DNA of 64,000 nucleotides from Octopus sinensis (lineage: Eukaryota), in assembly GCF_006345805.1 (NCBI RefSeq), contig NC_043010.1:44206001-44270000 (forward strand), in the 5' to 3' direction. The position numbers and the translations under genes were made by a program. Positions 5,412 to 50,504 of this stretch are shown one piece after another. The notes beneath the pieces were generated by a model. That model searched no databases and was not told the origin of the DNA. It saw nothing but the letters and a program-made list of their open reading frames with translations. Every line of letters starts with the position of its first letter. Position 1 is the stretch's first letter.

Positions 5412-5470
5412 ATTCAAGATCCTGGATTTCTAGCTTTGCTTTAAATAAGCTTTGCCATCATCGGTTGAAT
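5412..5470 (-). ncRNA. Type I hammerhead ribozyme motif (CCGAUGA core variant)
   Basis: Minus strand reads AUUCAA CCGAUGA UGGC-aaagcuuauuuaaagcaaa-GCUA GAAA UCCAGGA UC UUGAAU. Helix I is a perfect 6 bp, helix II is UGGC/GCUA, helix III is near-palindromic and the site is AUC. Confidence 0.7.
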
Positions 5471-6759
5471 ATATCAAAGCACATAAATACAAATATATTT
5501 ATGCAGAACAAATATATATATGCAGAACATATATATATAAATAAGTTTTAGGTGTTTGTATGTTGTCTTTTCACATTCAGTTTTTCCATGCTAGCATGAA
5601 TTACAAGAATACATATTATTGAAGCACTGTTTTAGTTTTGAGTTGAATACCTTTCCTGTTACTGCCCCTTGCTCATCTTTTCAAGTAAAAGAATTTTCAT
5701 TGCATTTGTCAAGGGACACATACACATACATCATCATCATTTTGACATCCGCCTTTCTGTTTGCAAGGATCAGATTGAATCTACTGAGGCAAATTTTCTA
5801 CAGCCAAATGCCGATCCTGTTGTCAACCCTTACCCGTTTCCAAGCAAGGGATTATTTTCTCACGGACAGACATGTTTTTACAGAAGATTAGAAATGAAGG
5901 ACACTTCTTGTTTAAATTATCATCCAATTTCAAGACAAGGAGACACAAAAACACTCCCTGCCCACATAAGCATATTTACATATATGTTAATTTGTTTATG
6001 TCATAACTATGTGGTTCTGAGTTCAAGATGCCATTTACAACTAGATGAAGATGCTACTGTGTGTTGTATATTAAGTAGCAGAGGCCTCCTCTTTCAAAAC
6101 AGAAGTTATTTGCAGCTAAATAAAAAAAAATGAGTTTCAACTATGAGAAAATTTTGTACAAATATCTAGTTAAAATCTATGCCTTTACTAAAGAAAATAT
6201 GATGAATGTAAATTTGGGTGACCCGTTGGAGGCAAGAATGGGAGTAGTGGCTAGTATTACAGGGGGAGGGGAGTCACTAGTTGTAGCTACACATGTACTG
6301 GTAGAAGAAAGAAAGAAAGCAAAGGGATATTATATACTGTCAAATCTGATATAGTCCTCTGATTGTCACTCAAGCTGTGTGGTGTATGTGTGTGTGTGTG
6401 TGAGGGGGGGAGGGCGATATTATTGTATTGGACAAACAACAATTACCTAGCAATGTTAGAGAATGAAGATAGGCCCTAAATAACAAAATAAAAATTTAAA
6501 AAATGAGAGGCAAGCAAGTTGCAGAGAATAGAAGCTGAAGTTGATGTATGGACAAAGTATATCAGATAAATAAGTGGAATTACAGCAGTGTTTCTCAGCC
6601 ATTTTTATCTTATTCTCCACCTTGACTTTCTGGAGATAACAAAAAAAACAAAAAAAAAAAAAACAAAAAAAAAACTTACATCCCACGACAAACAAAGTTA
6701 GCATATAGATAAGAAAATGAGATGACAAAGGAATAAATGATTATCTTATGAACTTCATA

Positions 6760-6840
6760 AGCTAACAGCTGTTTCTGCTATACCACGCAGTGGCCTCATA
6801 GTAGAGTACCCGAGTAACACTTTATAGCTTCATTGGAACC
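6760..6840 (-). ncRNA. Degenerate hammerhead motif with long helix II insert (same family as 42781-42862)
   Basis: GGUU CCAAUGA A GCUAUA-(40 nt)-UAUAGC A GAAA CAGCUG UU AGCU. The flank tgagatgacaaaggaataaa...ttatcttatgaacttcat is shared with the copy at 42740. Confidence 0.55.
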
Positions 6841-8054
6841 ACGAATATGAAATGCAATTTATTTCAATATATATACATACACATTCACTCAAAAGAAGCT
6901 TTCATTTAAACTTTATAGCAAGTTTTATTCACCTATTACTTATATCTCACCAAAATATAGTCTTGCCCCATGGGGGGGGGGTTATGCATCCCTTTTGAAA
7001 CACTGATGTAGATAGATAAATAAATAAGAAGAAAGAATGCAGTTTTAAGTTAGTGTTTGTTATTATCACTAGAATCATCAATGGAAATGATGTAACTGTT
7101 AGGCTGATGAGTAAAAATAAAAGTTAAATGAATAAAAAAATTATCCATTAAAATCAGAGATAATTTTCTCAATTATATGATACCGATCAAATAATTTATA
7201 GAGATTAATGATACTGAACAAATAAATCATCATCACCAGTGGCATATGTGAATAAAATAAACTAAATGAATAAACAAATGTGTAAGTAAAAGTAGATAAA
7301 AAAATAAAGGAGTGAATGAATAGTTCTAAAGATGGCGAAAATCAACTGTCTTTTCATACAATTTCTTCATGGACAATATCTCTGCCTGAAAATTTAGATT
7401 TAATCTAAAGGGCATTATAGCACTCAAACATACACTGTCGGACACATTAATTTATTTGTTGAGCTAGCTGCCAGCAAATGCATTATGTACATCAGGTTCT
7501 CAGATCAAATGAAGTCCTTAATTCGATGTTACTATAAATTCAATGTTGACAAAATAAGACAGATGATATTCTAGAAGGTATTGAAAATGGATGGGCTCTT
7601 TTTGTCCATGAAAAGACTGTATAAAAAACCAGTCACTTATACTTGTATTTAATTCAGTTGCTTTGTGAGTGAATTTGGAAGAAGGAAACTGTGTGGAAGA
7701 CTATCATATGTATATATGTGTGTGCATGTGTTTTTGTGCTTGCCCTTCACCTTGTTTAGCAAAAGAGATCAATGCAATAAACACCAGACTTAAAAAAATA
7801 AGTACAGGAGGCGATTTGCTTTCCTAAACTCTTCAAGATGGTCCCCTAAGCATGGCTAAAGCCCAATGACTAAAATAAATGAAAAATAAAAGATAAAGAT
7901 ACATGCAATGTTGGTGAAAACTTAGATTTATTCTAAAGTATATTATAGTGTAAAAACATGCCTCACTAAATTTATACATTCATACACATATACATACATA
8001 TATGTGTGTGTGTGTGTGTGTATAAATATATATGTATGTATGACCATCCATTTG

Positions 8055-8860
8055 AAATGCTAGAAATAGTAACCAAATTTCCCTTAAATCACAGAGCCTA
8101 CAATTTAAAAAATGCAACATGTACAATTTAGCCTCTGATGCACAAAAAAGACAGATCACAGCTTGAACACTTTTTTTTTTTATCATAGGTCTGAATGATC
8201 AAAGCTAACCTGTAGCTGAGAAATATTTAAAGGACCCTCTACATAGTAGATTGACTATCTAAAAATAGCAGTCATAATTCTCATAAATCACATACTACCA
8301 ACTTCAAAATGTAAGGATATATTGGGGTGCACAATGCCTGATATTTACAAAGATAGATGGAAGGTTTTCGTTGAAGACCTTTTAAAACTAGAAATATCCA
8401 GCAAAAGTTCTTCTAAATTACACATTTTACCATCTTAGAAAAAGGTTATATTGGGATATGTAATCCTTGACATTGACAAAGATGGGCAGAAGGCTTTCAT
8501 TTGAACTCGACTCAGCCTAAGAAATAAATAACCAACTTTCACCAACATCACACATCCTACCATCCTAAAGAAAAAGCTCATATATAAAATACCAATGGCA
8601 ATCTCCTTAAATCACAAACACTAGTCTTTAGAAAAAAAGAGAGGACACATTGGATAAAGTAGTCCCTAATGTATAAAAACAGATGATATTTACAACTAGA
8701 ACACTTTTTTACCAATGGTCTGATCAAGCTGGGTCCACATAACTTAGAGAAACCTTATGTGGTAACCACTAACAGAGCCTCTTAGCAGTTGTCCAAGCTA
8801 TTACAGATAGCAACCAAATCTCCCTCAAACAACACATTCTACATATATTTACTTTAAAAA
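8055..8860 (+). repeat. Decayed head-to-tail array of a dispersed repeat
   Basis: The motif tagaaatagcagccaaat..cctcaaatcacac..ctaccatcttaaaaa...acattggataa recurs about 6 times. Single copies occur at about 11020-11145, 23685, 52320, 54030-54200, 56530-56690 and 62330-62420. Confidence 0.55.
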
Positions 8861-10249
8861 AAATAATTGCCATTAAGTGTATTGCTGGGAAGACAATTGA
8901 ACATATAAAGAGTTTAATTATCAAACACTACACAACTTTAAATTCACTAATTTTTGAATATTTGTTCTCTTAATACAAACAGACAACTAAGATGTGAGAT
9001 AACCTATATCAAGAAATTCATAAAACTGTATAGTTTGCTTCAGGATAGTCAACAAGCTAAAAATTCTTCAGAAGAAATTTCCGCATGTGACAACAGATAG
9101 ACATAACCTCAGCCTTTTGACTTGAGAGTTATGGAAGTCTGTTTCACTACCTAGAACTTATAATTAAGCATATAATTAGATATTCATTTGGAATATGAGT
9201 AGCTCTGTCAATAATATTCCAGGTTATAAAAGAATGATCATGTCTTTGGTCTCTGACTTTCTAAATAAATTGAGACAAGGAAATAGAGTTTGAACTATTC
9301 CTAAAGGAGCACAATGTTGATTGTAATGTGCCTTGAAATTGCAAGTCCCATACAGTTCCTTTTGTATAATTAATGCTTGATATATCACTCCTTTGGAGAG
9401 GTATGATCTTCAGAGCAAACAAATAGATTGATGTCAACAAATGCAAAATGACTATTAAAATGAGGGCAGGGTGGATATGTGATAGTAGATGACAAGAACA
9501 GCTAACCATGACACTGTTCATTAAAACAGTTTACTTTATTTTCAAAGTATACAATGGGAAAAGTTCAAAGAGCTACTGGTTCTGCTCACAGCAAAGGGAT
9601 TCTCTCTGTCTAAAAAGCAAAAACCATAACAGAATTAGAGAATATCTGTGTGCTATGGAAAAGTGAGAAAAAAATGGAAAAATATGAAGAAAGCATAATT
9701 TTTGATAGAGAAAGTTGAGAACTGAGGGTCTATGAGATAGGGAATGAGCGTGGGAAAAAGTAAAGAAAAAGATGACTCAGGTGAGCATTTTATATCAGAT
9801 ATAGAGCTAACAAGAGTTAATATAAAAACTATAGTTGTATACTAGTATTTAAAATAAAAAAAAAAGAAAGAGAGAGAGCCAGAATTGGTTGGAGAGATCT
9901 AGATACTTTAAGGAGCAAATTGCCTTTTTCAAGGACACAAATAAATTTAGTGAGTTGAACAACGAGCTTTGTTATGAATGTCAGAATATCTGATCAATTT
10001 TCATTTGTACAGGAAAGCTAAAAGAGCACTTTTTGTTGTATTAGCCTTTTGTTTAAATAATAAAAAACACTATCTCTGTCCGTTTATTCACAGATGTAGG
10101 AATCACATAATAATGTTCCCATGTAACAGGCTTTTCTAGAAAATATTTTATTCTTCCCCAAAATATAAGCTAATTTTAATGAGGATTCACTGAACACTTT
10201 TTAAAGTATTCATCATAAAATGGATTATAGGAGACTTCATTTGATTAGT

Positions 10250-10452
10250 AGATTTCAAATTTTGGTACAAGACCAGCAATTTTGGGGAAAAGGATAAGTC
10301 AATTACATTGGCTCCAGTACTCATCTAGTACTTATTTTATTGACACTGAAAGGATGAAAGGCAAAGTCAACCTCAGCGGAATTTGAACTCAGAACGTGAA
10401 GATGGATGAAATACCACCAAGCGTTTTGTCTGACATGCTAACAATTCCACCT
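10250..10452 (-). mobile_element. SINE (Meta-like family). Further decayed copies at about 105-420, 30840-31025, 50920-51285, 56360-56480, 57410-57530 and 60540-60680
   Basis: tacttattttattgac..gaaaggatgaaaggcaaagtcaacctcagcggaatttgaactcagaac. Confidence 0.8.
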
Positions 10453-12492: not shown

Positions 12493-12706
12493 AAGGCATC
12501 AAGGCGGCAGAATTGTTAGCATGCCGGGTTAAATACTTAGCAGCATTTTGTCCATCTGCAAGTTCTGAGTTCAACTTCCACCAAAGTTGTTTTTGCCTTT
12601 CATCCTTTTGGGGTTGATAAAATAAGTACCAGTTGAGTACTGGTGTTGATATAATTGACTATCTCCCTCTCCCAAAATTCCAGGCCTTGTGCCTTTAGTA
12701 GAAATG

Positions 12707-14222: not shown

Positions 14223-15841
14223 TAATAATGAGTGAGTGTGCACATAGCAGTACTTGTAATACCCATTGGTATTTACAATGGTACATGTGGTGATAGCTAT
14301 AATGTTATTAATTATCATAACAATTGTGGGTACAGTGATGATACCAAAGTTATAAAAACAATGACAAAAAAGGAGTTCTATGTATATATGGGCTGTGATT
14401 TTGTCTGCATTTCAAGGCACCTTTTATAATAGGGATTGTTTGGTTTTCCATTTCCATATTCTGGATATCTATATTTCCAGGACAATCATCTCATTTCCTT
14501 GCAATATATATTAATCATCCGTGAAGGCATGTGGCTCACTCTCTCCCATCAAGATGTCCATGTATAAAAAATTGCATCAAACCTGTTCACATCTGATACA
14601 TCTTTTCCAAGCTGTCAGCCATTACTCCCTCCAGTCAAGGCCTTGCTACAGATGTCCATTATTCTCTCTTATCATTGTCTTCCCTATTGCTATCCATTAC
14701 TTGATTTTTCTCTTACAAGCAAACATGTAACTGTCATCACTGTCTTTCTTCCATTACTCTCCATCATTACTATTTCTCTTCCATTACCTTCTCCAGCTCT
14801 CTCTCTCTCTCTTTCATTATCCCCCTCCCTTCCATTAATTCTTCTTACTCCTCTTACTCAACTCATTTTCTCCTATCATACTTTCACTCCCTCCATCAAA
14901 TCATCTAGTTCTCCGGAGAACTCTTTTTTCTAGCAGGACACAAGGTAACACTGTTAATGCTAATTATTTAATAAAATGCACATACTGTAAAGTGGTTGCT
15001 GAACAAGCAAAGACAATGTAGTGGGGTGGAGGATCTTTGAGCCTGCTCTTAGTGCCGGTGCCATGATAGAATACATTGAGTAGACCTTTGTAAAGAGTTT
15101 GGTGTTAACATAATACATAGGTGGAGGTTTCAAATCTCTGCCAGGAAATAAGGGCATTCAGCCATACGAACTATGCCAAAAATGGAAGGCATGAGTGAGA
15201 GATGGTCTATGGTTGAGATAATCCGGTAAATTAATGTCAGTATAGAAATAAATATAACAATTACAGATAGACAGAGAACTAGGGGCATAGGAGTAGCTAA
15301 AGCTCTTGAAATGAAGTTAATGAACTGTTGAGTGGATTCATTTGATGTTGTTGATAGGCTTTGTTGATTTTAAATAGGTGCAAGGATTGGAGTGGTGGAA
15401 GCAACAGTAGTGTTTGACTGGTACTATTTTATCAACCTCAAAAGAGTGAAAAACAAAGTCGACTCCAGAGCAAAAAGTCAGGGAAAAATGTCACACATAT
15501 GCATACATATATACATACACATACATATATACATACATACATACAGACACACATATATACATACACACATACATATATATCATTAATTGAATATATTCTG
15601 TTAGAATATTATACACTGAATTTATAATGAGTGATCTTGGTATAAAATGTCAAAAATATTAATACTATAAAGTATTTAGACATTAATATGAGCGATTATA
15701 TACACTGTATTTTGAAATATTAGTATGAAATTCAATATCAAAAAAATTCATCATGAATATATATATGTCTAAAATAGCATTGTATTAAAAATATATGTAA
15801 ATATATGAAACATGACAGTTTAAAAATTTGTTAATTAATGT

Positions 15842-15931
15842 ATCTTACGATCGTTTCATGAAAGTATTGTCATTATAATGGAACCCATTGTTGATACACA
15901 TGGATAGACAATAATTCTGTTCGTCAGAGAT
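15842..15931 (-). ncRNA. Type I hammerhead ribozyme with intact catalytic core and extended helix II
   Basis: AUCU CUGACGA A-cagaau-UAUUGUC...GACAAUA-cuuuca-U GAAA CGAUCG UA AGAU. All core nucleotides are present, helix I is AUCU/AGAU, helix III is the palindrome CGAUCG and the site is GUA. Confidence 0.75.
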
Positions 15932-16207
15932 GGAGAAGATAGATTTTTATAATGTATTGAATGTTGTTTTAAAATTAGAAGAATATATGAGAAAGTATTT
16001 TTGAAAATAGATTAAAATTTACTGGTTTAGATCTATGCAGGTGGACTTAGGTAATAAAATTTAAAGTTTGTATATATAACCTTGGTAAGTTCATCCCAGT
16101 AATTCATGACTGGTTTTGATTTATGCAGATAGACTTTGGTAAGAAGCTTTCGAGTTTGTATATATATCTTTGTTAAATTCATCTTGATAATCCATGACAA
16201 TTTTGTG

Positions 16208-16302
16208 TAAACAGTACCTTATCCTGCATTTCATATTTGAGATTTAGAAGGATTGACGATATATGTATCTCACATATGGAATGCAGGATAAGGTACTGTT
16301 TA
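16208..16302. repeat. 36-bp inverted repeat / hairpin with 23-nt loop
   Basis: taaacagtaccttatcctgcatttcatatttgagat (16208-16243) versus atctcacatatggaatgcaggataaggtactgttta (16267-16302), 34/36 complementary. Confidence 0.95.
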
Positions 16303-16438: not shown

Positions 16439-17380
16439 CATCATCATCATCATCATCATCATCATTTAACGTCCGCTTTCCATGCTAGCATGGGTTGGAC
16501 GGTTCAACTGGGGTCTGGGGAGCCCGAAAGCTGCACCAGTCCAGTCAGATCTGGCAGTGTTTCTACAGCTGGATGCCCTTCCTAACGCCAACCACTCCGA
16601 GAGTGTAGTGGGTGATTTTATGTGCCACCGACACAGGTGCCAGACGAGGCTGGCAAACGGCCACGCTCGGATGGTGTTTTTATGTGCCACCGACACAGGT
16701 GCCAGACGAGGCTGGCAGACGGCCACGCTCGGATGGTGTTTTTTATGTGCCACCGACACAGGTGCCAGACGAGGCTGGCAGACGGCCACGCTCGGATGGT
16801 GTTTTTATGTGCCACCGACACAGGTGCCAGACGAGGCTGGCAGACGGCCACGCTCGGATGGTGTTTTTATGTGCCACCGACACAGGTGCCAGATGAGGCT
16901 GGCAAACGGCCACGATCGGATGGTGCTTGTTACGTGCCCACAGCATGGAGGCCAGTCGATGCGGTACTGGCTACGGCCACGTTCGGATGGTTTTCTTATG
17001 TGCCACGTGCCACCGGCACTGGTACCACAAGATACAAATTCCATTGATGTTCATCTATTTTGATTTGTTTTGATTTTCACTTGCCTCAACAGGTCTTCAC
17101 AAGTGTCACAAGAAGGAAGGTATGCACAGGTGGACTGACTACGTCCCAGGTAGGGGCCATGGGTTATGGCCTGACTAGTCTTGCCGGGTCTTCGGATGGT
17201 GTTTTTATGTGCCACCGACACAGGTGCTAGATGAGGCTGGCGAACGGCCACGATCGGATGGTGTTTGTCATGTGCCCACTGCACTGACTACGGCACTGAT
17301 GGATTTCTTGTGTGCCACAGGCACTGGTACCACAAGATACAAATTCCATTGATGTTCATCTATTTTGTCTATTTTGATTT
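16439..17380 (-). mobile_element. Young RTE-3'-end-derived element with (GAT)n tail and internal tandem expansion
   Basis: (CAT)n at the left end, followed by ttaacgtccgctttccatgctagcatgggttggacgg...ggatgcccttcctaacgccaaccac. This sequence is shared with 19563, 22455, 33820, 56750 and 60721. CpGs are retained. Confidence 0.8.
16616..16925 (+). repeat. Minisatellite: 5 x 62-bp unit (sixth copy at about 17202-17262)
   Basis: Unit tttttatgtgccaccgacacaggtgccagacgaggctggcagacggccacgctcggatggtg; the atgtgcc anchor occurs at 16620, 16682, 16745, 16807, 16869 and 17207. Confidence 0.95.
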
Positions 17381-18959: not shown

Positions 18960-19495
18960 TGGTAGCAATTTCTCTTGAAAATAGACAAAATTTGGCATCA
19001 TGGTGTTAGCAAATACCTGCACAAAAAGGGTTTAGCCACCAAGGACATTAGGGGATGTTCCAGCTTTATCAACAGTGTAAAAGCAGGCAGCTAAATTTAG
19101 GAGAGGAAGGGTGAGACTTGAAGATGATCCAAAGTCTGGACATCCTGCAACTGAGGAAAATATTGATCATGTTTGCCACATGCTAATGGATGACAGGCGA
19201 CTGACAATAAATCAAATAGCCAATGCTACTAGCATATCCTGTGAGAGGATCGAGAATATTCTGCACAGTGAACTTGGCACCACGACAGTTTTTGCCTGGT
19301 GGATGCCACATCTTCTGACACCTGATCAAAAGTGCAGCAGGCTGATCACATCAGGGGAAAATCAGATGTTGTTTGAGGCAGATCCAGCTGGTTTACTTGA
19401 ATGGTCTCTAAGCCAGGATGAGTGTTGGGTTCATCACTTTGAGCCAGAGACAAAGAAACAATTCATGCAGTGGAAACACTCGTCCTCACCCTGTA
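18960..19495 (+). pseudogene. 5' fragment of a second mariner-family transposase
   Basis: ORF 19111-19509 contains EDDPKSGHP, DDRRLTINQIA, WWMPHLLT (WVPHEL-like) and QDECWVHHFEPETKKQFMQW. It is truncated after the first catalytic D. Confidence 0.88.
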
Positions 19496-19562
19496 AAAAT
19501 GAGTTCTGATGTCGATTTGTTCAACTAAACCCTTCAAGGCAGTTCCTCAGCATGACTACAGA

Positions 19563-19830
19563 TCATCATCATCATCATCATCATCGTTTAACGTCTGTTT
19601 TCCATGCTAGCATGGGTTGGACGGTTCAACTGGGGTCAGGGAAGCCAGAAGGCTGCACCAGGCCCAGTCTGATCTGGAAGTGTTTCTACAGCTGGATGCC
19701 CTTCCTAACGCCAACCACTCCGTGAGTGTAGTGGGTGCTTTTTACGTGCCACCTGCACAGGTGCCAGACGAGGCTGGCAAACGGCCACGATCGGATGGTG
19801 CTTTTTACGTGCCACCGGTACGGGGGCCGA
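19563..19830 (-). mobile_element. RTE-tail element copy with a single 62-bp unit
   Basis: (CAT)n tail and high similarity to 16439-16680. Confidence 0.8.
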
Positions 19831-25528: not shown

Positions 25529-25789
25529 ATTGGCTTCGTAATTGACCACATTCACATTGGTCTCATCAAAGCAGCAGCCATAGGGGAGTGGGCTGTCCAA
25601 AACAAGACCACTGTCTGTGTGTGACCAGGACAATCCTTCCAAAGAGTCCTGTGACAGACCTATGGATGAATCTTCTATTTCAGTGAAGTTGTGAATTTGT
25701 TCCACCCAAGAATCTCCCATGGCAGGAGGGAAGTCTCGAGCATCATGATAAAACTCTAAGTCATCAGTTTCTTTTTCTTCTTTATCAAA
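25529..25789 (-). CDS. Internal coding exon, 261 nt, phase 0/0: FDKEEKETDDLEFYHDARDFPPAMGDSWVEQIHNFTEIEDSSIGLSQDSLEGLSWSHTDSGLVLDSPLPYGCCFDETNVNVVNYEAN
   Basis: Long pyrimidine tract ending tcttctgtcag|TTT at 25790/25789 and donor AAT|gtatgt at 25529/25528. There are 87 stop-free codons with higher GC than the flanks. Confidence 0.8.
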
Positions 25790-31629: not shown

Positions 31630-32210
31630 CACACTGCCACCCCATAAATGTTAAAGAATAGATTTAAAGATGTGACGACAAAAGATTTTTTTAAAAATAT
31701 TTTCATACGGCACAACATAAAATTAGTATGTGATGGGTAACTAGAAGCTGAATGCTGAACTTATTGATGCTTAAAGGTTGAAAAGTAAAGACATTATGAT
31801 GAGCTTTCACAAGTTACCTCTTGAACAAGAAGTTGGAAATGTAACTGAATGCAAAACTATATTAAAGCTTTGATAAAAAATGGAGCTTTAACAGGACAAT
31901 GAGTTTGGATAGCTAGACTTAGAATGGCACAAAGTAACATAAATTTATTATTTAGAATGGAAAAGATGGACTCTTCACTATGTTTGTCATATTCTATAAC
32001 AATAAATAAAGCACAAGGTCAGTCTTTAAGTAAAGCAGAAATATATTTGCTGCAGCAAGTCTTCAGTTACGGACAATTATGTCTCTCTTGGAAGAGCTTC
32101 AAAATCATTAGATATTGGAGCTAATGTTGTGCAGACCAACAAACTAGGGAAACAACAAGACTTATAGATATAACAAAAAAAAAACATTGTATTTGGTTGA
32201 GTTTCTCAGC
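31630..32210 (+). mobile_element. Helitron PIF1-like helicase C-terminal relic
   Basis: LPPHK (31634), LCLSYSITINKAQGQSLSKAEIYLLQQVFSYGQL (cf. AFAMTINKSQGQSL...VFSHGQLYVA) and a terminal KNIV. Confidence 0.75.
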
Positions 32211-34147: not shown

Positions 34148-35085
34148 AAAGCAAGAAAATAGTTAAAGCAGAATGGTAATGAAAATGAAGAAAAAGGAAA
34201 AATAGAAGTGGAAATAAAAGAAGCAGGATTACAGATGAAATACATAAAATACAAAAAGAAACAGAGAACCAAGTAACACCTAATATAATTCCATTAATAT
34301 CTAGAATGCATTGGAGGAATATAAACTGACCGAGTACTTAAGTGATATCAACCCTGGTGGAATGAGAGAAAGGCTTTGGCAGGATTTAAACTTAGAACAT
34401 AAAAAATTATAACTAAATGTTGTAAGACATTGTTCTCCACAGCTAACCATTCTGCTCTCCCACAGCATTAAAATTTTTGAAAAAATATTTGCATATAGAG
34501 ATGGCTGTGTGGTAAGAAGTTTCCTTCCCAACCACATGGTTCTGGGTTCAACCCCACTGTGTGGCACTTTGAGCAAGTGCCTTGTGAGTAGATTTGCTAG
34601 ATAGAAACACAAAGTATGTGTGTGTGTCTTTGTTTGTTTGCTGCTGCCACCACCACCACCACCACCACCACTTGACAACCAGTGCTGGTGTGTTTATGCC
34701 TCTATGACTTAGTGGTTTGGCAAAAGAGAGTGATAGAATAGGTACCAGGCTTAAAAAAAAAGAAAGTACTGGAGTTAATTCATTCAGCAAAAAATTGTTC
34801 AAGGAAGTGCCCCAGCATGGCTGCAGTCTAATGACTGAAACAAGTAAAAGATACACACCTCTATCTGTGCAATGAATTAAAACAATTCATCAGAGAATTT
34901 TAAGATCAATGGTATATGTATATAGCATGGTGGTGTGGTCAAGTTTATTTTGTGACAACATATATAGCTGCAAAGCAAATTTCTAAACCAAATAGATCCA
35001 TGATACTTTGAGCAATATCTTCTACCATAACTTCGGCTTGACAGATATCTTGTAAATGAAATTTAACAGATGGAAACATATATAT

Positions 35086-36207
35086 ATATATATATATATA
35101 TATCCTGTTTTAACCTCCTACTCTTTGGACTTACGTATCTTAACTACTGTCTGAACTTTCTGAACCTCTTCTCATCTACATACCAGCACTCCACTCAGAT
35201 TACCACTGGATATACTGACTCTACTTTCACGGATTTCACTGGACTCTTCCATTGATGTAAAATCACTCCAATATACCATGACTTCTGAACTTTTTTGAAC
35301 TCTTCAAACTTTTTGAACTTTCTGATTTTTCATACTCTGTATGTCTAAATTGACAAGTTTTTTTTTATTCTCTCTCTGTTTATTTTTCTCTTATTCCTTC
35401 TGCTGAAGAGTGCAAGCTCAAAATGTAAAATACTTTCTCACATTCGCAAGCTTCAAACTAATACAACTGTTTGTTGTTTATACACCTGTCTTCATCTTTT
35501 GTTTTTCTGTAAATTTTAACTATATATATATACGTATATGCTGTGCTCGTGAGCAGATGAGAACTTGTACATTCAAACAGAAATACCATGTGTACTCAAT
35601 TCTAACTGAATTACTTCCCTTCACAACATTTTGTATAAGAAGCCTAATGGAATAAGTACCAGATGAAGAGCTGTTGTGAAAGCAATGCCTTAGTATGGCT
35701 GCAGTTTAACGACTACAGCCAGTAAAAGAACACACACACACTAATGTCCTAATTCTTTTCTCTTTTTACCTAAATGAATGCATAATGATGAGAATCTTGG
35801 AGCAGTGATAGACTGAATCATCAGCTTCAATGTTTAAACTCTACTATGTGTGTTCTCCCATTTGTACATCACTTGTGACATGCAGTGATTCAGCTAATCA
35901 GAGGAAAAAGGAAGAAACCCCCACCCAAAATGCACACATGTATGTATGAGATTTTTAAAAAGTAAATTAATATAAAACTTTTACAAACGTACCAAAGCCT
36001 CTGAATTATTGGGAAAAGGTAAATATAGGTGTAGGTGTGGCTGTGTGTTAAGAAGTTTGCTTCGCAACCGCATGGTTCTGGGTTCAGTCCCACCATGTGG
36101 CACTTTGGGCCATCAGAACGTCTACTATATTCTTGAGCTGACCAAAGCCTTGTGAGTGGATTCGGTAGATGGAAACTGAAAGGAGCCCATCGTATATGTG
36201 TATATAT

Positions 36208-36246
<39 letters not shown>

Positions 36247-37336
36247 CCTGTTTTAACCTCCTACTCTTTGGACTTACGTATCTTAACTACTGTCTGAACT
36301 TTCTGAACCTCTTCTCATCTACATACCAGCACTCCACTCAGATTACCACTGGATATACTGACTCTACTTTCACGGATTTCACTGGACTCTTCCATTGATG
36401 TAAAATCACTCCAATATACCATGACTTCTGAACTTTTTTGAACTCTTCAAACTTTTTGAACTTTCTGATTTTTCATACTCTGTATGTCTAAATTGACAAG
36501 TTTTTTTTTATTCTCTCTCTGTTTATTTTTCTCTTATTCCTTTCTGCTGAAGAGTGCAAGCTCAAAATGTAAAATACTTTCTCACATTCGCAAGCTTCAA
36601 ACTAATACAACTGTTTGTTGTTTATACACCTGTCTTCATCTTTTGTTTTTCTGTAAATTTTAACTATATATATATACGTATATGCTGTGCTCGTGAGCAG
36701 ATGAGAACTTGTACATTCAAACAGAAATACCATGTGTACTCAATTCTAACTGAATTACTTCCCTTCACAACATTTTGTATAAGAAGCCTAATGGAATAAG
36801 TACCAGATGAAGAGCTGTTGTGAAAGCAATGCCTTAGTATGGCTGCAGTTTAACGACTACAGCCAGTAAAAGAACACACACACACTAATGTCCTAATTCT
36901 TTTCTCTTTTTACCTAAATGAATGCATAATGATGAGAATCTTGGAGCAGTGATAGACTGAATCATCAGCTTCAATGTTTAAACTCTACTATGTGTGTTCT
37001 CCCATTTGTACATCACTTGTGACATGCAGTGACTCAGCTAATCAGAGGAAAAAGGAAGAAACCCCCACCCAAAATGCACACATGTATGTATGAGATTTTT
37101 AAAAAGTAAATTAATATAAAACTTTTACAAACGTACCAAAGCCTCTGAATTATTGGGAAAAGGTAAATATAGGTGTAGGTGTGGCTGTGTGGTAAGAAGT
37201 TTGCTTCGCAACCGCATGGTTCTGGGTTCAGTCCCACCATGTGGCACTTTGGGCCATCAGAACGTCTACTATATTCTTGAGCTGACCAAAGCCTTGTGAG
37301 TGGATTCGGTAGATGGAAACTGAAAGGAGCCCATCA

Positions 37337-37345
<9 letters not shown>
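35086..37345 (+). repeat. Near-identical tandem duplication, unit about 1144 bp
   Basis: Identical spurious ORFs are offset by 1143-1144 (35410/36554, 35890/37034). I see only 1 indel and about 3 substitutions between the copies. Confidence 0.95.
35398..35430 (+). ncRNA. Degenerate minimal hammerhead motif (second copy at 36541-36574)
   Basis: UU CUGCUGA A GAGU-GCAA-GCUC AAAA UG UA AAA. The changes GAAA>AAAA and CG>UG are both consistent with CpG decay. It lies in a (TA)n-bounded element. Confidence 0.45.
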
Positions 37346-37378
<33 letters not shown>

Positions 37379-38052: not shown

Positions 38053-38753
38053 TAGATGGTTTTTTTTTCTAGCTAATCTAGCCTTGTATTTTCATGACCT
38101 ATATCTGATACACACCAAAGAATTTGCATCAAATTATTATGTTGTAAATCTTAAACAAAATGTTGTCTCATCATTATCTGATGCAATCAATATATAGATG
38201 GAACTAGTCTCAAAATGGGATATTTTTTTCAACAGTCAATAGGTATGCACTGAGGTGTTTCTTACTTGTTTTTCACCTGTTAATGAGGTGTTTTTAGAGA
38301 ATGTTCTCTAAAACCTTTTCTTGCTTGTTTTGGATAAAAATCAATGATTCTAATGAATAGAATCATCTACCTGCATTCAGAAGTCATGAATGCACTGAAG
38401 TAGAATGAAAACTCATATAACACAATCTCAGCCATAATAGTAATAGGAGTAGTAATAACATTTCATTCTTTCTTCTCTTAGCTGATTCTTATAGTACACA
38501 TAGCATGCAAAGGCATTCACCATATTTAGCTAAGAAAGCATCTGTACTGATTAAAATCATACCCATAAAAAAAAAAAAATCATCAGTGTTAAGTGATAAT
38601 TCTTGCCAGAGGCATAGGAGACAGCATTGAAATTCTAATTGCGTAGAAATTGAATGAGGGAATGCAGAGGGAAATATAACTCTTGGTGGCAACTCTGGAT
38701 ATATTTTAAACATACCCGACAACCTCAATGAAGAATTGATTTACTTGTACCAT

Positions 38754-39035
38754 GCTCTTAATCACTACGCCATATGCACACAGGCATATGGAGTAGTGGT
38801 TAAGAGCGCAGGCTACTAACCCCAAGATTCCGAGTTCGATTCCAGACAGTGACCTGAATAATAATAATAATAACATTGCAAAATACCTTAGGAATGAGAA
38901 CCCAGGTTTGAAATTTCCCCAAGACACCTGACGAAGGCTGGAGGGTATATCAGCCGAAACGTGTTAACAACAAACAAGATGAGGACAAATGTAAATAATG
39001 TACATAATTCCTCATCTCTTAAATATAGAACTGTA
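38754..39035 (+). mobile_element. Non-autonomous element: inverted tRNA-like head + (TAA)n + hammerhead
   Basis: A-box-like TGGAGTAGTGG, anticodon-loop-like CTACTAA and B-box GAGTTCGATTCC at 38784-38845. A 24-bp inverted copy of the head lies at 38754-38777 and the hammerhead at 38923-38965. Confidence 0.65.
38923..38965 (+). ncRNA. Hammerhead motif lacking the NUH triplet, inside a tRNA-headed element
   Basis: GACAC CUGACGA A GGCUG-gagggua uau-CAGCC GAAA C GUGUU. Helix I is GACAC/GUGUU and helix II is a perfect 5 bp. Only one nucleotide separates GAAA from helix I. Confidence 0.6.
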
Positions 39036-39099
39036 TATAAATTTTTAGTGAAAAACATTCATTGATTACTTCATGCTCTTGCTTGATGAGGCTTGAGTC

Positions 39100-42223: not shown

Positions 42224-42388
42224 CTTTTCTTCTTTTTGACTAAATGACATGTTGTCAACATTATCAAACTCCCTTTTTTTCATGGCGGCTGTTCCGCCTC
42301 CTCCTGATTTAGCATCAAGAGATTTATTGGGATGGTGTCGATATATTTTATTGATAGATGCCTTGTTGGATGGTTCCGAAGATGTCAT
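42224..42388 (-). CDS. Probable first coding exon (exon 42407-42224, ATG at 42388) of an unidentified minus-strand gene: MTSSEPSNKASINKIYRHHPNKSLDAKSGGGGTAAMKKREFDNVDNMSFSQKEEK
   Basis: Polypyrimidine acceptor ttcttctttag|G at 42408/42407 and donor AAG|gtaagt at 42224/42223. The frame is open and ends in phase 0, matching the next exon. The start codon is inferred. Confidence 0.7.
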
Positions 42389-42780
42389 CTGTCTAAATTC
42401 ATTCCCCCTAAAGAAGAAGAAAGAAATAGAGTAATTAGTATCATGAAATCTTATCAAATATTTTATCTTATTTTTTAAAAATCAGTAGAGGGAAGGGGAC
42501 AGAATGAGAGATGAGAGAGAGTGTTAAATAACTATTTCTAAGCAGAAATAATTATAGGCATAGCTGTGTGATGGAGAATGTCATTTAAGAACCAGATGGT
42601 TCTGGATTTGATCCCAGTATGCAGCACTTACAGTAAGCGGTGCATCTACTATAGCATTAGGTTGATCACTGTCATGTGAGGAATTTGGTGCACAGAAACT
42701 AGCGAAGCCCTTCATATTCATACATACATATATGAAAATGAGATGACAAAGGAATAAACAATTATCTTATGAACTTCATT

Positions 42781-42862
42781 AGCTTACAGCTGTTTCTGCT
42801 ATAAGACACAGTGCAGTGGACTGATAGGTGAGTGCCTGAGGAACATTAACTTTATCAGAGCC
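42781..42862 (-). ncRNA. Degenerate hammerhead motif (CUGAUAA core) with long helix II insert
   Basis: GGCU CUGAUAA A GUUA...UUAUAGC A GAAA CAGCUG UA AGCU. Helix III is the palindrome CAGCUG and the site is GUA. Confidence 0.6.
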
Positions 42863-45800
42863 TTGAATATGAAGTGCAACTGAAGTGCACCAGGATATGA
42901 CTCTCACAATGCCTAAGCAAAATATATACATATATGTGTATGCCTGTGTGGATAACCTGGTGAGGGATGCACCACACAAAATATATTGTGCTATTTAGTC
43001 CACTGAATCTCTTAGGTGGATATATTACTATTCAATAAATAGACATTGACAAATTATGTACTAGATAAAATACTGGGACCCACAGAATCAAATAGAAACC
43101 CTAAAATATGGCTGCAACTAAATTGTTTTTGGGGTCCAATTAAAAAATGGTTGTAAAATCATGCTGATGATGTTGCTAATTGTACGCATTTGGAATTCTT
43201 GGAAATATTTTACTTAATGTCTTTCTCAATCCTAGGTATGAACAGATTGGTTAGATGGTAATGTATTGGACTAAACTAAAGGGTGTGAGTTCAAATTTAC
43301 AGTAAGAGTTTTCTTCGAGAAACACTATTCTATATTGCCTAAAAAGAATTAGGTGCCAGATCATCCAGGAACCATGAATGAAGACTGGTAAACTATCCAG
43401 ATAAAAAATTTCTCACATTTGAAACTAGAGTAAAACACCATTGGCTTTAGCGGTAATTACTTTACATACTGTACTGTAAAGTTACTAATTTTCTCTATTA
43501 ATTATATATATACATAAAACTTTGACAGAAAGAAAATGGAATTCATGAGATGCTGTACAAACAATTGTGTTGCATTGTAGGTGTGGATGTATCTTACCAG
43601 GTGACTTGTCAAAAGGTACCTCATTTTTAAATCTTCATTTTGCTAATGTTCATGACATCAGGTGACTGAATACTGTTAACAGGGTTTTAAATGGCATACT
43701 ACAAGGTGTATACTTGAATATGAAATTATTGCATGCATGCATACATACATCACTACCAGCTCTGATAATTTTAGGCACAAATTTATGTACATTAAACATC
43801 CAATCATTAACCACTGTATCAATACTTATTTTTATTACTACAATTGTAAACTGTTTTGTATATAAGCCTGTACCTAGAGAGAGAGATTCAAACTATCCTA
43901 CTGTTTCATAACACCTGATTTCTGTTGGATACAGTTATAATATAAATCCAGATATAAGATCGAGATTAACATTAGAGTAATCCAACATTAAAATAAACGT
44001 AAACATTAGCTCTACCAAATTACAAAGTTATTTACAAAAGTTGGTAATTAAGTAGAAAATAGTTTGCCAAACAAATTTTGAGAGCTATAATATTAGAATG
44101 GCTGTTCTAAATATTTTAATTTATAATCTTGTGTCAATCTGAGAAATTAATATCTACATTTTATAGGCAAGAACCAGAGTAAGCTCCTGGCACATTCATT
44201 GGTAGCTTGGTTGTAATTTTTTATTCTTAAAAATGTATCTTGTTTGAGAAGAAAGGACAGCACTTGTGACCTTTACAATTTTATAGACCTGTCACTGTTA
44301 TGAAAGATCATCAAAGACCATGAAGCCCAGCATTTGTAAAAGTTTGAGTCTTGTATGCTGTTTATGAGTAAGAAAAGTATAACACTGTTTCCATTGCATA
44401 CATGTAGTGATTGCATCTTGGTGCTGCAAAAGAGGAGGAAGTAGTTCATAACAAACATGCAATCCTTCCATATTTTGACAACTGTAAATGCTCAAAGAAT
44501 ACTTCTGCAGCATTGCTTGGATATTTGTTCTGGAAATCTGTAACTCTAAAATAAATTGATTCAAAGATTCAGTTGCCAGCCTGTTTTGATGACCATGCAC
44601 CAAATGCTTCTTATTTACTTTGAATTAAATTATGCCAGGGTTTTCACTGACCAAGATTGATTATGCCTTTGTCCATGCATGTGTAGGCCTGGGCAAGAAT
44701 TGAAGAAGACTGCAAGTTGTCTATGCATGCAAGCAAGTCTCCCATCTCCCCGATACTAAGTCACCAACTTAGGCCAATTTACAACTAGTCATAACTGTCA
44801 TTGCAAGCATCAATTATAGTCAGAATGCAAAGAACCAGAACAGCTATCACAAAGCATCTTGCCTGACCCACCAATAGTTCTGGATTGATGGAACTATTCT
44901 TAAATATAAAGTATACAAACTCTGAGTATAATTCAAACTGGCCAATCTACTGCAGTCTCTATGCAAATAGAGAGTTTTGTAGGGTTAAGAATAAGTTATT
45001 AAATATTCAAGGAACACGTGAATGTTTAATATATATTCACAGAATTATTATAATCTTTCAGGAGTCGGTATTTTTGAATACTGCTTTTCTAAAGCGGATC
45101 AATGGTACACAAATTATCAATCTAAAACCTGTTGGTGGTAACCTATTAACTCAGTTTTCAGAAGATATAAACCTGTCAGTTTATTATTGGCACACTATTT
45201 TATTAATCTCAGAAGAGTGAAAGAAAAAGTTAAACATGGTAAGATATGGATTCAGATCACTAAGCTGCTGAGCAGCTTGCAGATTTATAAAGTCTAGATG
45301 AATAGTCTGCCATTAGAACATAATCCAACTTGTAAAGTCTGACCAAATTTTACTCCAGGCTGGGCATCATAAGGAAATGAATACGTAGATACAGCAATTT
45401 AGATACTTAAATTTGTCTACTGCAAGTCAAGTAGCTTACATACCAGCTTCTTCTTTACTTCATCTAATCATAAGTAGTTCATTTGTATGTTATTAAATCT
45501 AACCATGAACAACAAGCCTGGAGATTTCCACAGAATTTTCTTAATTTGTTTTGGACTATTTATAGAAGGTATAAAGGAAATAAGGTAGCAAATAAAAAAA
45601 ATAATAAAAAAAAGCGAAGGCATGGCAGATATTTGGTAGACTTGCAAGAATAAAATAAAATTATTTTTCCCTATTTTTGAATATTTGTTTTGAGAAATTT
45701 TAATTTCCTCACAAAGAATTTCTCAATCCATTTGATGTAATTTATTAAATTATATGAAGTTATATAAAAATATCTTAAAACAAAATTAGGGGAAAAAAAG

Positions 45801-45927
45801 AGAAAGTTCTTGGCAATTAATAATAATCATTCGTAACCTGTTTAAAACAACTCAGTTGATGCCAAGAAAATTAGATACATATGTATATACAAGCAAATAC
45901 ACATGCATAGAGAGAGACTTTGACATA

Positions 45928-47183
45928 TCAGGTCATTAAGAATGAAATATCCGATTTTGAAGTGAAAGTTTATTTTACTCTATCTCAACAAAAAGCAATG
46001 CAGTTAACCAAGTATGCACCTAAATTATCAACACAACTTTGCCATTTTATTGGAAGCTTATTTATGCTGGCAGCGAAGAATTCTGGAGAGCAAGAGGTGA
46101 TGAAATCATGAAAGGCTGTTTTTTCATCTTCTTCGGATTTGAAGTTTATTCCTTGCAAAAAGTTGTCTAATGCCTGGAAAATGTTATAGTCAGTTGGTGC
46201 AAGGTCTGGTGAATATGGTGGATGACAGAGTACTTCCAGTTCAGTTCCTGTAACTTGAGTAGTTATATCTTTGTGCAACATGTGGTTGAGCATTGTCTTG
46301 CAAGAGAATTGGCCCATCTCTATTGACCAATCTTGGTTGTTTAATTGCAAGCTCACTCATCATTTCATCCATCTGGTTGATGTATACATCTGCTGTAATT
46401 GACTTACCAAGTCTCATGAAGCTGTAATGGATGACACCAGCGCTGGACCACCAAACAGACACCATTGGCTTTTTTTGATGAACATTCTCTTTTGGATTGT
46501 GTTTTGGCACTTTGTTTCTATCCAACCACCATGCAGAATGCTTGCTATTGTTGAAAAAAATCCATTTTTCATCACATGTAACAATATGATGCAAAAATGG
46601 TTTGTTTTTATGCTGTGACAGCAAAGAACAGCAGGTTTCAAGACATGTGGTACCCACCTGTCCAGCTTCTCTACCTTGCCAATTTGTTTCAGATGATCCA
46701 ATAGAGCTGGAATCAAAACATCAAACCTTGCTGCTAACTCAAGTGTAGTTTGAGATGTTTTAGCTTCCATTACAATTTCCAGCTTACCATTATCCACTTT
46801 GGTCTCAGGTCTACCACAGGGCTGATTTTCAAGAGTAAAGTCACCAGACAGGAACTTCTCAAACCATCGATGTACAGTGTGCTGATTCACCACATCTTCA
46901 CCAAATACCTCATTGATGTTTTGAGCTGTCTGGGATGCATTGGTTCTACGATGGAACTCATTTTCATAAACAACACAAATTTTTTATCTATCCATGGGTT
47001 CACAAAAACTGATTTACAAGAGAAAACTCACAATAAAATCAGACACCATAATTGCGTTTTGAAAAGTGATGATGTAACTTTTCAATGTTGTAAAACAAAG
47101 AATTGTCAGAATAACACATTAGAGCTAACGACTGTCAAACTTGGTGCATACGAAAATTGGACATTTCATCCTTAATGACCTGA
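45928..47183 (-). mobile_element. Full-length (1256 bp) inactive mariner transposon
   Basis: About 30-bp TIRs (tcaggtcattaagaatgaaatatccgattttg / cgaaaattggacatttcatccttaatgacctga) with TA at both ends (45926-45927, 47184-47185). Confidence 0.95.
45985..46995 (-). pseudogene. Mariner transposase pseudogene (DD34D type), frameshifted into three ORFs
   Basis: Motifs WVPHVL, IVTCDEKW, LLQDNAQPH and HPPYSPDLAPTDY occur in three different frames. There is an early stop after the ATG at 46995. Confidence 0.93.
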
Positions 47184-48098
47184 TAGTACAATTCTATGTA
47201 TTTATCAATGACATTTTAAAATTGTAAAAATATATTTTGTAATTTTCTCTTGAATGAGTATTTTAAAAGAACAGCTATTGTTTTACGGGAGCAAGAAAGA
47301 GTCATAATTAGCTGCTAAAAGTGTACTGAAGGAGTGGGATTATAAGTTGTTAAATTAAGTGTTATATAACAACACAGCAGCTGCAGCAGTGGTGGTACTT
47401 GTATGGAATGAGGTCAGTTTGAGATGGCTATCTTTACACAAGATTTTATTGTATTTTCTACAGAATAGGATGTTTAACGACTAAATGGGAAGAAATATAT
47501 TTAGTTATTTGTTAGAATGGATTTATTTAGAACAGATTTATTTTTCATCTTTTACTTGTTTCAGTTAATTGGAATGTGGCCATGCTGGAGCACCATCATG
47601 AAGGGTTCAGTCAAACAAATTGGCTCCAGGATTTATATTTCAAGTTTGTTTTACAGATATTAAAATTGGAGTTAACTTAGACTTTTAAGCATACTGAGTG
47701 GGAGTTTTAGTCTACTAAGAGCATGAATAATCTCAGATAATTGAAGTTTCTCAAGTCATGCGACCTGCTTCTCAAAAAAGCTTGCCCATAACTGGGGCAG
47801 AGCCTGAGAGGTTGGTGTTTTGTATCCTGTCACTGGACTGAGTTTGTGACCAAGTAATTCAACTATCAAATGGCTCAGTCCACCTAAATTACAATGTAGG
47901 AAGCACTGTGAAACTGACACACTACATGAAGTTACACTCTATAAAGACAGAATATTGAGTGGTAGACATGTTACACTGGGTTAAAGAATTCATTGTTAAT
48001 CATATTTTGAAATTACATTTTTATTTTTGTTTTCCTTCCTTAAGCTCTATACATTGTCTTTCTGTCAGTAGATATCACCACCATTTATTTCACTACAC

Positions 48099-48401
48099 CA
48101 GTGGTTCCTAACTGAGATCCAGATAAGATACACATATTTTCTTTCCTGTTTATTTTTTTTTTGGGGGGGGGGGGATCCATACAAGCAAAATAGTAAATTG
48201 GAGATCCAAAGTTGTATTTTAAGGGCCCATGAAAAATTTTGATTTAAATGAAACAGCTAGGTTTCCTTCTCTAACATTTTACATAAGAATGAGTGAATAA
48301 CAAAAGAGGAATGTTTTTAAACACTGAATGACTATGGAGGTCCACCAGAATAAAATAGTTACCAAAGGGGTCCATAGGTACAAAATGATTGAGAACCATT
48401 G
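48099..48401. mobile_element. hAT-type MITE
   Basis: Ends cagtggttcctaa / ttgagaaccattg, with an 8-bp TSD cactacac (48091-48098) / cattacac (48402-48409). Confidence 0.75.
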
Positions 48402-48714
48402 CATTACACAATAATTTCCATAGACATTCTATTTTGTTCATCATAACAGCTATAGGGATTAACATTCTAAGGTTTGATATAATCCCTACTTGATTTTGTT
48501 TTTTTTCATCAGTACTGATATAGTTGTTTATTCCCTCTTGAATAAAAATCAGGTACTTTCCCTGATCACAAGACTGTCCCATGTCAAGAAGGGATGGAAA
48601 TCTTGAGCTCCTCTTCACCTGGCTGATTTCTCAGATTAAAAAAAAAAAAAGGCAAGAAAATGCATCAAAGTGATTTCTGAAATCTGAAACTTCAGAAAGA
48701 TATTCTAGGGGGTC

Positions 48715-49950
48715 AAAATGAAGGACTGCAGTAATTAATAGAGAGATGATGTATTATGGTATAGACATTGCTGCACCATCAGAAACATGACTAAGAGAGC
48801 TAGGAAAGTTATGAGAGCAAAACTACAACCTCATCTGAGTAGGAAGTAAGGATGTTCTACAGAGTGAAGGTCATGTTGGCCTAGCTATTATGATCCCTCT
48901 TGTCATCAAACTGATGTCATTTGCAATTGCTATATCTGATAGACTAATGAAGGTGGAATTAAACAGCAACCAAAATATAACTCTTTTTAGTGTTTATGTT
49001 ACAGTGATGACAAATAAGTGGAACTAGAAAGAAGATTTCTATGATTTGTTGCATAGATCCCCAGACACAAAGCCAACAACTGGTAGGCTGCTTGTCTCAG
49101 GTATTTTAATGAAAGAACGAGGTGGGATTACCAAACCTGGGACTACATGTTAGGTCACTTTAGAAAAAAGCAACTCAACTGACCACCCATCACCATTGAA
49201 AATGTCTACTGAAACTATCCAACAAATATAATCTAGCTGTAACAAACAGCTTTCAAAAAGTGGATTTGCAGCTGGTGCCATCTTCCCTTGAAATGATGAT
49301 AACTGTGGAACTATGCTCTTACTTGCAGAGACAACATTACAGGCATAAGCTGTAAGCATGCCATGAAGGGTAAGAAGGCCGATTGCTTCACTGACCACAC
49401 ACTGATAAGTGCTACAAGCAATTTTTCTGTGAAGACAAAGACAAGGAAGATAGCAGAATTGAAACGAAAAGACTAGATAACAACAAATTGAGAAATAATA
49501 AAGTGCAACATGAAGTTGCCACAAATATGACCACCAAATTGAAAATGTTACTCAATAATGTACTAGCTGACAGCACAAAGCAATCTGCAAAACAGCTGCT
49601 ACATCAATTGGCTTCCTAATCATAAATATGTTGACTGGTTTGATGAAAATGCAAATATACGACAGCTGTTAAGTGAAAAATGAAAGTATGATCAAGCCAG
49701 CCATGAATGGACAAAATTCATGGCAAGTTACTAGCTGACCCCAAAGATGCAAATGTCTTGCTACAAAGAAAATTGAAGCTGTTGAAGAACTGATTGTTGC
49801 CAGAAGGCAGACAAAATTCAGGCCTTTGCTGACACTAACAATGTAAATGCCTTCTATGCTAGTCTGATAAAAGTCTACTGTCCTCACAAAGGTGGTAATG
49901 CATTGAGAAAAGTGATACTATGAAATATTGGTAAGGACATTTTTGTAACC
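48715..49950 (+). mobile_element. Highly degraded RTE (BovB-like) LINE, AP-endonuclease region
   Basis: RTAVI.RE...YGIDIAAPSET (cf. RRTALIARELARYNIDIAALSETR), SDRLM, FSVYV.VMT, FYDLL and a GDFNAR-like remnant, all in order but with many stops. Confidence 0.65.
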
Positions 49951-50415
49951 TCAACAATTTTTAATCACAAGAAATGTGTTCAGACAGATTCCAGGAGATA
50001 TCAGATTAAATTTACTATCAAACATGGAGAAACTGGAAACTACCATATATGAGGAGGGGATAGAAAAATGATCCTGATACTAACAACACTCTCATGGTAG
50101 TTTATAAGCATGAAAGGAAGGAATTGCACTGCATATACATATAAGTTTGTAATTATCTGTAGACATAAATAACTTTCAATGTTTAAATTTTTCAAGAATA
50201 ATCAAACTACAGGATTCTAATTTAGCCTTACTTCATATTATGGACTCTTCTAAAACTTTATATTTTATATATAGCATCATAATATACCTTATATTATACA
50301 TTGTGTCGTAATACATTTTAACTTCATGTCTGAAGAGAATGGTTTAATCAAACATTCGATTTTTAAAATTATTTAACCCACCATTTCTTTAAAATTTTAA
50401 CCTTGTGATTCTATT

Positions 50416-50504
50416 AACTCAGATGAGAGAAATATAGAATATTGCTATGCTTGGAGTTAATTCACCCAAAGCAACCTAAATATTTTCAAAACGGCCGTAA
50501 GACT
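50416..50504 (+). ncRNA. Degenerate hammerhead motif
   Basis: AACU CAGAUGA GAGAAAUAU...AUAUUUUC AAAA CGGCCG UA AGACU. The palindrome CGGCCG and the GUA site are retained, with two core substitutions. Confidence 0.45.

Follow-up and report, generated by a model that had tools for sequence, protein, structure and literature searches.

The 64,000-nucleotide stretch of the Octopus sinensis genome analysed here (the window; NCBI RefSeq assembly GCF_006345805.1, contig NC_043010.1, positions 44,206,001–44,270,000 of the forward strand) contains eight hammerhead-ribozyme-like sequences, which an earlier examination of the letters alone (the sequence-only reading) assigned to about six families of ribozyme mini-elements in the introns of one gene. 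Inspection of the letters within the 64-kb window confirms hammerhead-like sequence at all eight places. The eight motifs represent seven insertions from six dispersed families, labelled A (5412), B (6760, 42781), C (15842), D (35398, 36541), E (38923) and F (50416), the two family D sites being one insertion that has been duplicated locally. All eight copies of the motif are damaged and none is intact. We interpret the sites as mutated hammerheads in the 3′ repeats (pseudo-long terminal repeats; pLTRs) of six families of Penelope-like elements (PLEs), four of which are continuous with PLE coding frames and one of which is a 484-nt unit that lacks any open reading frame (ORF) and was likely moved in trans; we estimate the probability of this reading at roughly 0.88. 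The features of the window are collected in Table 1, in which hammerhead numbering, the NUH rule and the A-box and B-box consensus sequences follow general usage.

Table 1. Hammerhead-bearing repeats, adjoining tracts and host exons in the window.
Feature	Position	Strand	Description
Family A copy	5270–5512	−	5′-truncated piece of ORF-less 484-nt head-to-tail unit
(TA)n after family A 3′ end	5232–5267		
Hammerhead A	5412–5470	−	6-bp helix I; U4C in core; C3 at 5464; helix III UCCAGGA; C17
Family B copy 1	6703–6879	−	Hammerhead 6760–6840; U4C, G5A; helix III CAGCUG
Family B copy 2	42714–42934	−	Hammerhead 42781–42862; G8A
Family C copy	15551–16256	−	3′ stub of Hydra-type PLE
Hammerhead C	15842–15931	−	Intact core; helix II base broken; helix III CGAUCG
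TA/TATG tract at family C copy	15502–15579		
Family D copy 1	35345–35530	+	3′ stub of likely Neptune-type PLE; then (TA)n
Hammerhead D, copy 1	35396–35431	+	C3 at 35400; A6C, G12A, C15.2U
Family D copy 2	36498–36673	+	Hammerhead ~36540–36575; C3 at 36544
Tandem duplication holding both D copies	35075–37372		1,156 bp, 99.5% identical
Inverted short copy of family E 5′ end	38747–38779	−	PLE-type inverted arm
tRNA-like head of family E	38783–38855	+	A-box-like and B-box motifs at tRNA spacing
Family E copy	38783–39036	+	pLTR/3′ end of Poseidon-type PLE
Hammerhead E	38923–38965	+	C3 at 38928; helix III CG; 3-nt deletion removing cleavage triplet
Family F copy	50147–50547	+	3′ stub of Hydra-type PLE
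Hammerhead F	50416–50504	+	U4A, G12A; 2-bp helix I; helix III CGGCCG
Host exon	25613–25750	−	70% identity over 46 aa to internal segment of abalone TACC3-like protein
Host exon	42224–42407	−	184 nt found unchanged within longer contigs of 3/4 RNA-like runs; strand from splice signals

The window copies taken singly resemble background. An Rfam scan of the window returned no hammerhead at E ≤ 10, and single copies fold much like shuffled sequence (z from −1.6 to +0.4). A descriptor scan recovered no intact motif, two motifs with at most one core mismatch (none in each of six shuffles) and six with at most two mismatches, which overlaps the 4, 0 and 2 found in three shuffles; just three of the eight sites pass this last threshold. 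At this level, chance matches in AT-rich introns would give a similar picture. At the level of the families that explanation is refuted and its probability is negligible. The core is restored in family copies at the positions that are mutated in the window, for which reason the sites are called real hammerhead motifs; the motifs are placed in pLTRs as expected; and the loci fetched from elsewhere in the genome gave 106 strict matches against none in a shuffle. The search covered 2.72 Gb and yielded between 106 and 4115 first-look candidates per family, which are not copy numbers. Among the 29 nearest copies of each family, a complete core occurs in 12 of A, 11 of B, 11 of C, seven of E and five of F, and CUGANGA in 13, 18, 23, 25 and 22, respectively, but in none of the 28 copies of family D. 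The type I architecture (CUGANGA, GAAA, UH and helices I–III), which had been claimed for several families of the Penelope kind, is therefore present at family level in A, B, C, E and F, although in the window no copy retains it intact and family D lacks A6 altogether.

In family D, position 6 is U in 23 copies, C in five and A in none. The core reads CUG(U/C)UGA, in a register 3 nt upstream of the obvious CUGAAGA, and what fixes this register is the presence of three features: a helix I of 4 bp, a helix II of 4 bp containing G10.1–C11.1, and an extra nucleotide after A9. The extra nucleotide is listed as a PLE trait (PMC4209133). The CUGAAGA register chosen by the sequence-only reading has no helix I and a broken helix II, is seen in just the five C-copies and was rejected. 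By analogy with natural A6C hammerheads, which are slow in Mg2+ (PMC3088659; PMC7151607) and active in Mn2+ (PMC7151607), the family D ribozyme need not be dead.

Elsewhere in the genome, PLE coding frames are continuous with four of the families: Poseidon-type with E, likely Neptune-type with D and Hydra-type with C and F. Because the repeat runs on from PLE endonuclease frames, these four are truncated 3′ ends and not separate mini-elements, so that the count of about six families stands while the description as mini-elements does not apply to C, D, E and F. For family E, all 30 loci chosen on the endonuclease end alone continue into the repeat within ~30 nt; its relatives have RVT_1 and YVDD together with a GIY-YIG-like motif of the CxC type, and the CX2-5CxxC zinc-finger linker is absent from the three relatives checked and from locus L188, as in Poseidon. 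For family F, a Hydra-type endonuclease on the same strand ends 140–260 nt upstream of the query start in ten of 29 other loci. One of the F loci (L183) has the CxCX5C linker and the CxxC near its end that, with an absent CCHH, mark Hydra, and the closest proteins carry RWK and DKT in the reverse transcriptase (RT), the motifs that define Hydra. A reading of the F frame as Naiad was discarded, the endonuclease being C-terminal and bearing Hydra motifs. For family C, a Hydra-like endonuclease (37% identity to F) leads into the repeat in locus L132, and L150 shares that flank. For family D, L181 and L059 hold an RT and an endonuclease followed by D, and L041, L044 and L051 share the stretch between. 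L181 also has a decayed linker at the expected place and an endonuclease start resembling the Neptune-type frame in L189, which suggests that D is likely a Neptune-type PLE. That frame (L189:4231–6092, minus strand) is nearly complete and adjoins a copy of family F, but at the frame's own 3′ end no member of the six families is present; it and the zf-RVT frames in L128 and L143 were set aside as unrelated neighbours. The window itself has no PLE ORF detectable by tblastn with 11 fixed PLE fragments and frames from three loci, as had been stated; the linked Penelope ORFs that were to be sought are found for C, D, E and F, and not for A and B.

Family A is the sole family shown to be ORF-less. 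Its copies are 89–97% alike, and in 30 loci picked on the 5′ part of the unit and read by eye the unit start is preceded by its own 3′ end in 18 (17 insertions), a ~100-nt tail follows in 15, and two tandem hammerheads occur in three (L343, L345 and L364), as in an ORF-less tandem retrozyme; none of the 30 continues into an ORF. A mobilizing partner acting in trans, as had been proposed for all, is likely for A, whereas C, D, E and F need no separate partner. Family B is at most ~400 nt long and often has TA on both sides. Head-to-head inverted arms, of the kind described for PLEs (PMC8557442; PMC3846280), occur in all six families, and the partial tandem with tail is clearest in A. A TA tract stands at the 3′ end in 24 of 29 copies of A, 16 of 29 of B, 14 of 29 of C, 22 of 28 of D and 16 of 29 of F (48–83%, against a background of 8–16%, in a test whose 3′-end finding can run into shared TA tracts), and in one of 29 of E (background over six families 4–16%). 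The association with TA therefore extends to five of the six families and does not include the site at 38923; in C, D and F it matches the published (TA)n bias of Hydra and Neptune (PMC8557442).

Several points weigh against this assignment. The copy samples are the 30 best matches per search and are not random. The PLE link of family C consists of one ORF-bearing locus with the endonuclease part only and one partial locus, and CxxC and the 37% identity to F are the only Hydra features seen. The upstream part of family D in the window (35104–35345) has no match among the other fetched loci. Family B shows no ORF link in 30 upstream-picked loci, and in L370 a Hydra RT piece lies 1.4 kb upstream, separated by other repeats. 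Clades were assigned by motifs and not by an RT tree, and Pfam gave no significant match on the short PLE fragments themselves. The RNA evidence consists of assembled contigs, which show neither ends nor strand, and no cleavage or transcript end was observed.

Helix III was surveyed with a hammerhead scan that did not impose a palindrome, over 1.27 Mb of fetched loci (overlapping loci included), among them 30 loci picked on a flank that served as bystander sequence here and in the family E head, arm and deletion counts below. The 106 strict matches fall into 24 types, of which 15 have an exact palindrome and several others are one change away. Pairing of helix III in cis costs +1.7 kcal/mol or is impossible, while pairing in trans yields −1.7 to −14.1 kcal/mol; the dimer architecture is real, and the earlier expectation that the palindrome favours dimers is upheld. 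Family specificity is another matter, since two of the six window families share CG. The rival account takes all six families to be partner-dependent mini-elements (retrozymes), with a helix III under selection as a dimerization code specific to each family. It draws on the ORF-less, tandem family A, on a repeated 5′ start ~110 nt upstream of the query in ~9 of 30 family B loci without an ORF, and on homodimer helices of −6.4 to −14.1 kcal/mol against a heterodimer mean of −1.6 and best of −5.7 kcal/mol. Such orthogonality, however, needs no selection, as any two different palindromes give it, and families C, D, E and F continue from ORFs. Moreover, palindromes are reused: CG is common to D, E and a third type, and two or more unlike types have CAGCUG, as is also true of CGUACG. 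A code would predict that all six-mers are distinct (P = 0.01 by chance); nine of 11 are, against a random-draw mean of 8.1 (16 possible; P = 0.37). Because unrelated families share palindromes and the spread equals random draws, the dimerization code is unsupported, and this rival is largely refuted and very improbable.

Some further observations concern the hammerheads themselves. The flanks of the fetched loci hold at least 15 more hammerhead types with their own palindromes (L043, L044, L047, L059, L070, L094, L100, L145, L146, L147, L219, L294, L301, L344, L348, L350 and L355); by eye, those of L059 and L044 seem akin, and the double change that separates them keeps the palindrome (CCAUGG/CCUAGG). 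About half of the nearest family A copies carry U4C. The centre of the family A helix III palindrome is A in 20 of 24 copies and U in four, and the A-type and U-type pair perfectly with each other (−12.7 versus −7.6 kcal/mol). In family F (for example, L152 and L154) a 13-nt tandem duplication starts exactly at the predicted cleavage site; by eye, the repeat is double in ~17 and single in ~11 of 30 copies, and the window copy has the single unit.

With the sites taken as 3′ repeats of PLEs, the following course of events may be envisaged. The PLE protein likely begins reverse transcription 70–200 nt downstream of the hammerhead and in most cases halts early, which would leave short 3′ stubs, often with an inverted arm; insertion would occur in (TA)n for the Neptune and Hydra types and for A and B, and without TA bias for the Poseidon type. 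The stubs, inverted arms, tails, targets and ORF links are observed, and from them we infer the insertion reaction. Internal priming near the 3′ end has been reported (PMC11167929), as has cleavage by dimers within tandem transcripts (PMC4209133). In such transcripts, the self-complementary helix III would join two identical hammerheads, which would then cut, a proposal that draws on this literature and on the duplex energies; a palindrome would be needed because both partners have identical sequence, and its identity would drift freely in each family. Since the whole of family D lacks A6, cleavage is likely dispensable for PLE spreading. Insertion in vitro has been found not to need cleavage (PMC11167929).

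Family E differs in its head. Its pLTR opens with a tRNA-like segment directly after the stop of the frame, 8 nt behind the query end, with A and B boxes at tRNA spacing and a fixed 5′ end as in tRNA-derived short interspersed nuclear elements (SINEs), and this head belongs to an ORF-bearing element. The short E copies may accordingly be SINE-like, the head being an RNA polymerase III (Pol III) promoter in the pLTR from which a ~255-nt hammerhead RNA is transcribed and copied by the Poseidon protein. The head aligns to the genome's own tRNAs (z of 1.7–4.0 versus shuffles; 15 distinct tRNAs; best Arg-TCT and Ala), and a strict A box is present in 27 and a strict B box in 25 of 50 heads (38 and 35 if CpG decay is allowed). 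By eye and with the query included, eight of 11 tail-picked copies that reach the head stop ~4 nt or less from tRNA position 1 (P = 2 × 10⁻⁷; six of nine by the strictest count). The sense strand of the window copy has no run of four T, and in schistosomes the SINE-like repeats that bear a hammerhead are transcribed by Pol III (PMC6765202). Yet the place where they stop falls on a 12-bp palindrome; palindromes are a known feature of pLTR 5′ ends and of inverted junctions, where they are interpreted as sites of self-priming (PMC3846280). Furthermore, 19 of 30 tail-picked copies end before the head, ARAGORN called no tRNA in 32 E loci, and Rfam found neither a tRNA nor a hammerhead in the window or in one E copy. 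The stop may therefore mark either a Pol III start or self-priming at the palindrome, and we regard the SINE-like account as a tentative alternative of somewhat under even odds.

The hammerhead of family E is further marked by a deletion of 3 nt that ends at the predicted scissile bond and is present in 34 of 104 copies (a partly query-biased sample) and in seven of 15 scorable copies picked on the ORF, whereas a true (AAC)2 contraction 5 nt away is found in six of 104. Among 22 inverted pairs, the two arms of single insertions are independent in deletion state, differing in eight and agreeing in 14 (random 12.4, P = 0.36), while other minor non-CpG variants are common to the arms in six cases against 2.1 in random pairs (one of 300 re-pairings as high); non-CpG divergence in this set is 3.7%. 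The product is exactly that expected from a jump across the cut via a 2-nt GU repeat. It might thus be a scar made anew at insertion, with the hammerhead cutting the RNA and the RT jumping the break, in which case the genome would record in vivo cleavage and its rate (~1 template in 3) in a pLTR with its own tRNA-derived Pol III promoter. We consider this doubtful. The numbers are small and the test was framed after the fact; the same product would arise if the RT slipped on uncut RNA, if each insertion drew on two master templates or if the DNA later acted as a hot spot; and the indel tally of families A and D shows no such deletion, those of B and C, which used loose anchors, being set aside. 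In a tree of the 15 scorable ORF-picked copies (15 of 30 being unscorable and left out), which is star-like, the deletion requires six changes against 5.3 when shuffled and is unclustered, although the test is weak. Alignment columns that appeared linked to the deletion were rejected as lying at cut alignment ends or as due to sampling.

Two minus-strand exons were found in the window, in part agreement with the placement of the sites in introns of one gene; a single gene holding both exons and all sites is conjectural. No other exons of the TACC-like protein were found in the window plus 10 kb on each side, and among the joints listed none links the two exons. The A, B, B and C sites lie on the same strand as the exons. 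They are unlikely to cut the pre-mRNA, since each is damaged and stands alone. Other repeats surround the sites. The 5′ side of the family C copy carries an 88-bp tandem duplication and a 36-nt inverted piece (16021–16302); a 62-bp tandem array at 16611–17004 lies within a common interspersed repeat, with a related copy at 19562–19817; and mariner-type transposase remnants occupy 45988–46983 on the minus strand (HTH_48, Transposase_1) and 19081–19509 on the plus strand. A 171-aa frame at 55421–55936 on the plus strand resembles the C terminus of a non-LTR element, with its restriction-like endonuclease, and a frame at 31903–32124 on the plus strand resembles a C-terminal piece of a Pif1/Helitron helicase; neither has a Pfam match.

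Four of the families belong to PLE clades already known, hammerheads included, and A is retrozyme-like. As in published PLE hammerheads, a genome holds several consensus families, for the most part as single truncated copies, and the motifs share a long helix II, a short helix I, the extra nucleotide after A9, palindromic 15.2–16.2 and loop 3 and dual opposite-strand copies; a Drosophila virilis PLE hammerhead type with a 2-bp helix I resembles family F. In contrast to those hammerheads, all 28 copies of family D carry U or C at position 6, C4 occurs in about half of the nearest A copies and palindromes reach 8–9 nt. With the Hydra, Neptune and Penelope/Poseidon clades (Craig et al., 2021; PMC8557442) the families share the C-terminal endonuclease, partial tandem, inverted 5′-truncated arm, tail and canonical hammerheads, together with the (TA)n bias in Hydra and Neptune; they differ in the tRNA-like head on the Poseidon pLTR and in the ~100-nt tail of family A, compared with the 30–40 bp described. 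The main finding is expected biology, the large number, diversity and palindromes of PLE hammerheads being familiar: published work already reports numerous related families within one genome, a palindrome in helix III and a bias towards (TA)n (PMC4209133; PMC3088659; PMC8557442). It has modest value as missing annotation, the main text of the octopus repeat paper containing neither 'hammerhead' nor 'ribozyme' (PMC13282606) and Rfam missing the hammerheads. In the literature searched, which did not extend to Repbase, the supplements of PMC8557442 and PMC4209133 or Lunse et al. (2017), no account was found of the six families, of a core with fixed U6, of a pLTR with a tRNA-like head or of a scar at the cleavage site.

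Like the animal non-LTR retrozymes (Cervera & de la Pena, 2020; PMC7229834), family A is an ORF-less head-to-tail unit with a type I hammerhead, although it measures 484 nt against ~220–390 nt and forms one to two units with a PLE-type inverted arm and tail in place of long arrays; ORF-less retrozyme units have been argued to be non-autonomous PLE derivatives (bioRxiv 10.64898/2026.07.22.740005). Schistosome SINE-like hammerhead repeats (PMC6765202) and TRIMp3/Helenus (Kojima, 2024; PMC10886601) have, as in E, tRNA-derived boxes joined to a hammerhead repeat or in a terminal repeat, but in family E the tRNA-like part lies directly behind the stop of an ORF-bearing PLE, whereas Helenus are non-autonomous LTR retrotransposons. 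Whether PLE hammerheads cut in vivo has been stated to be unclear (PMC8557442), and the spread of family D without A6 and the family E deletion bear on this question and on whether cutting matters. The Anolis Poseidon element PAc (Frangieh et al., 2024; PMC11167929) likewise has a pLTR hammerhead whose cleavage is not required when the element inserts in vitro, which agrees with the spread of family D without A6; no RNA ends were found at its cleavage site, whereas the recurrent deletion of family E ends at that site.

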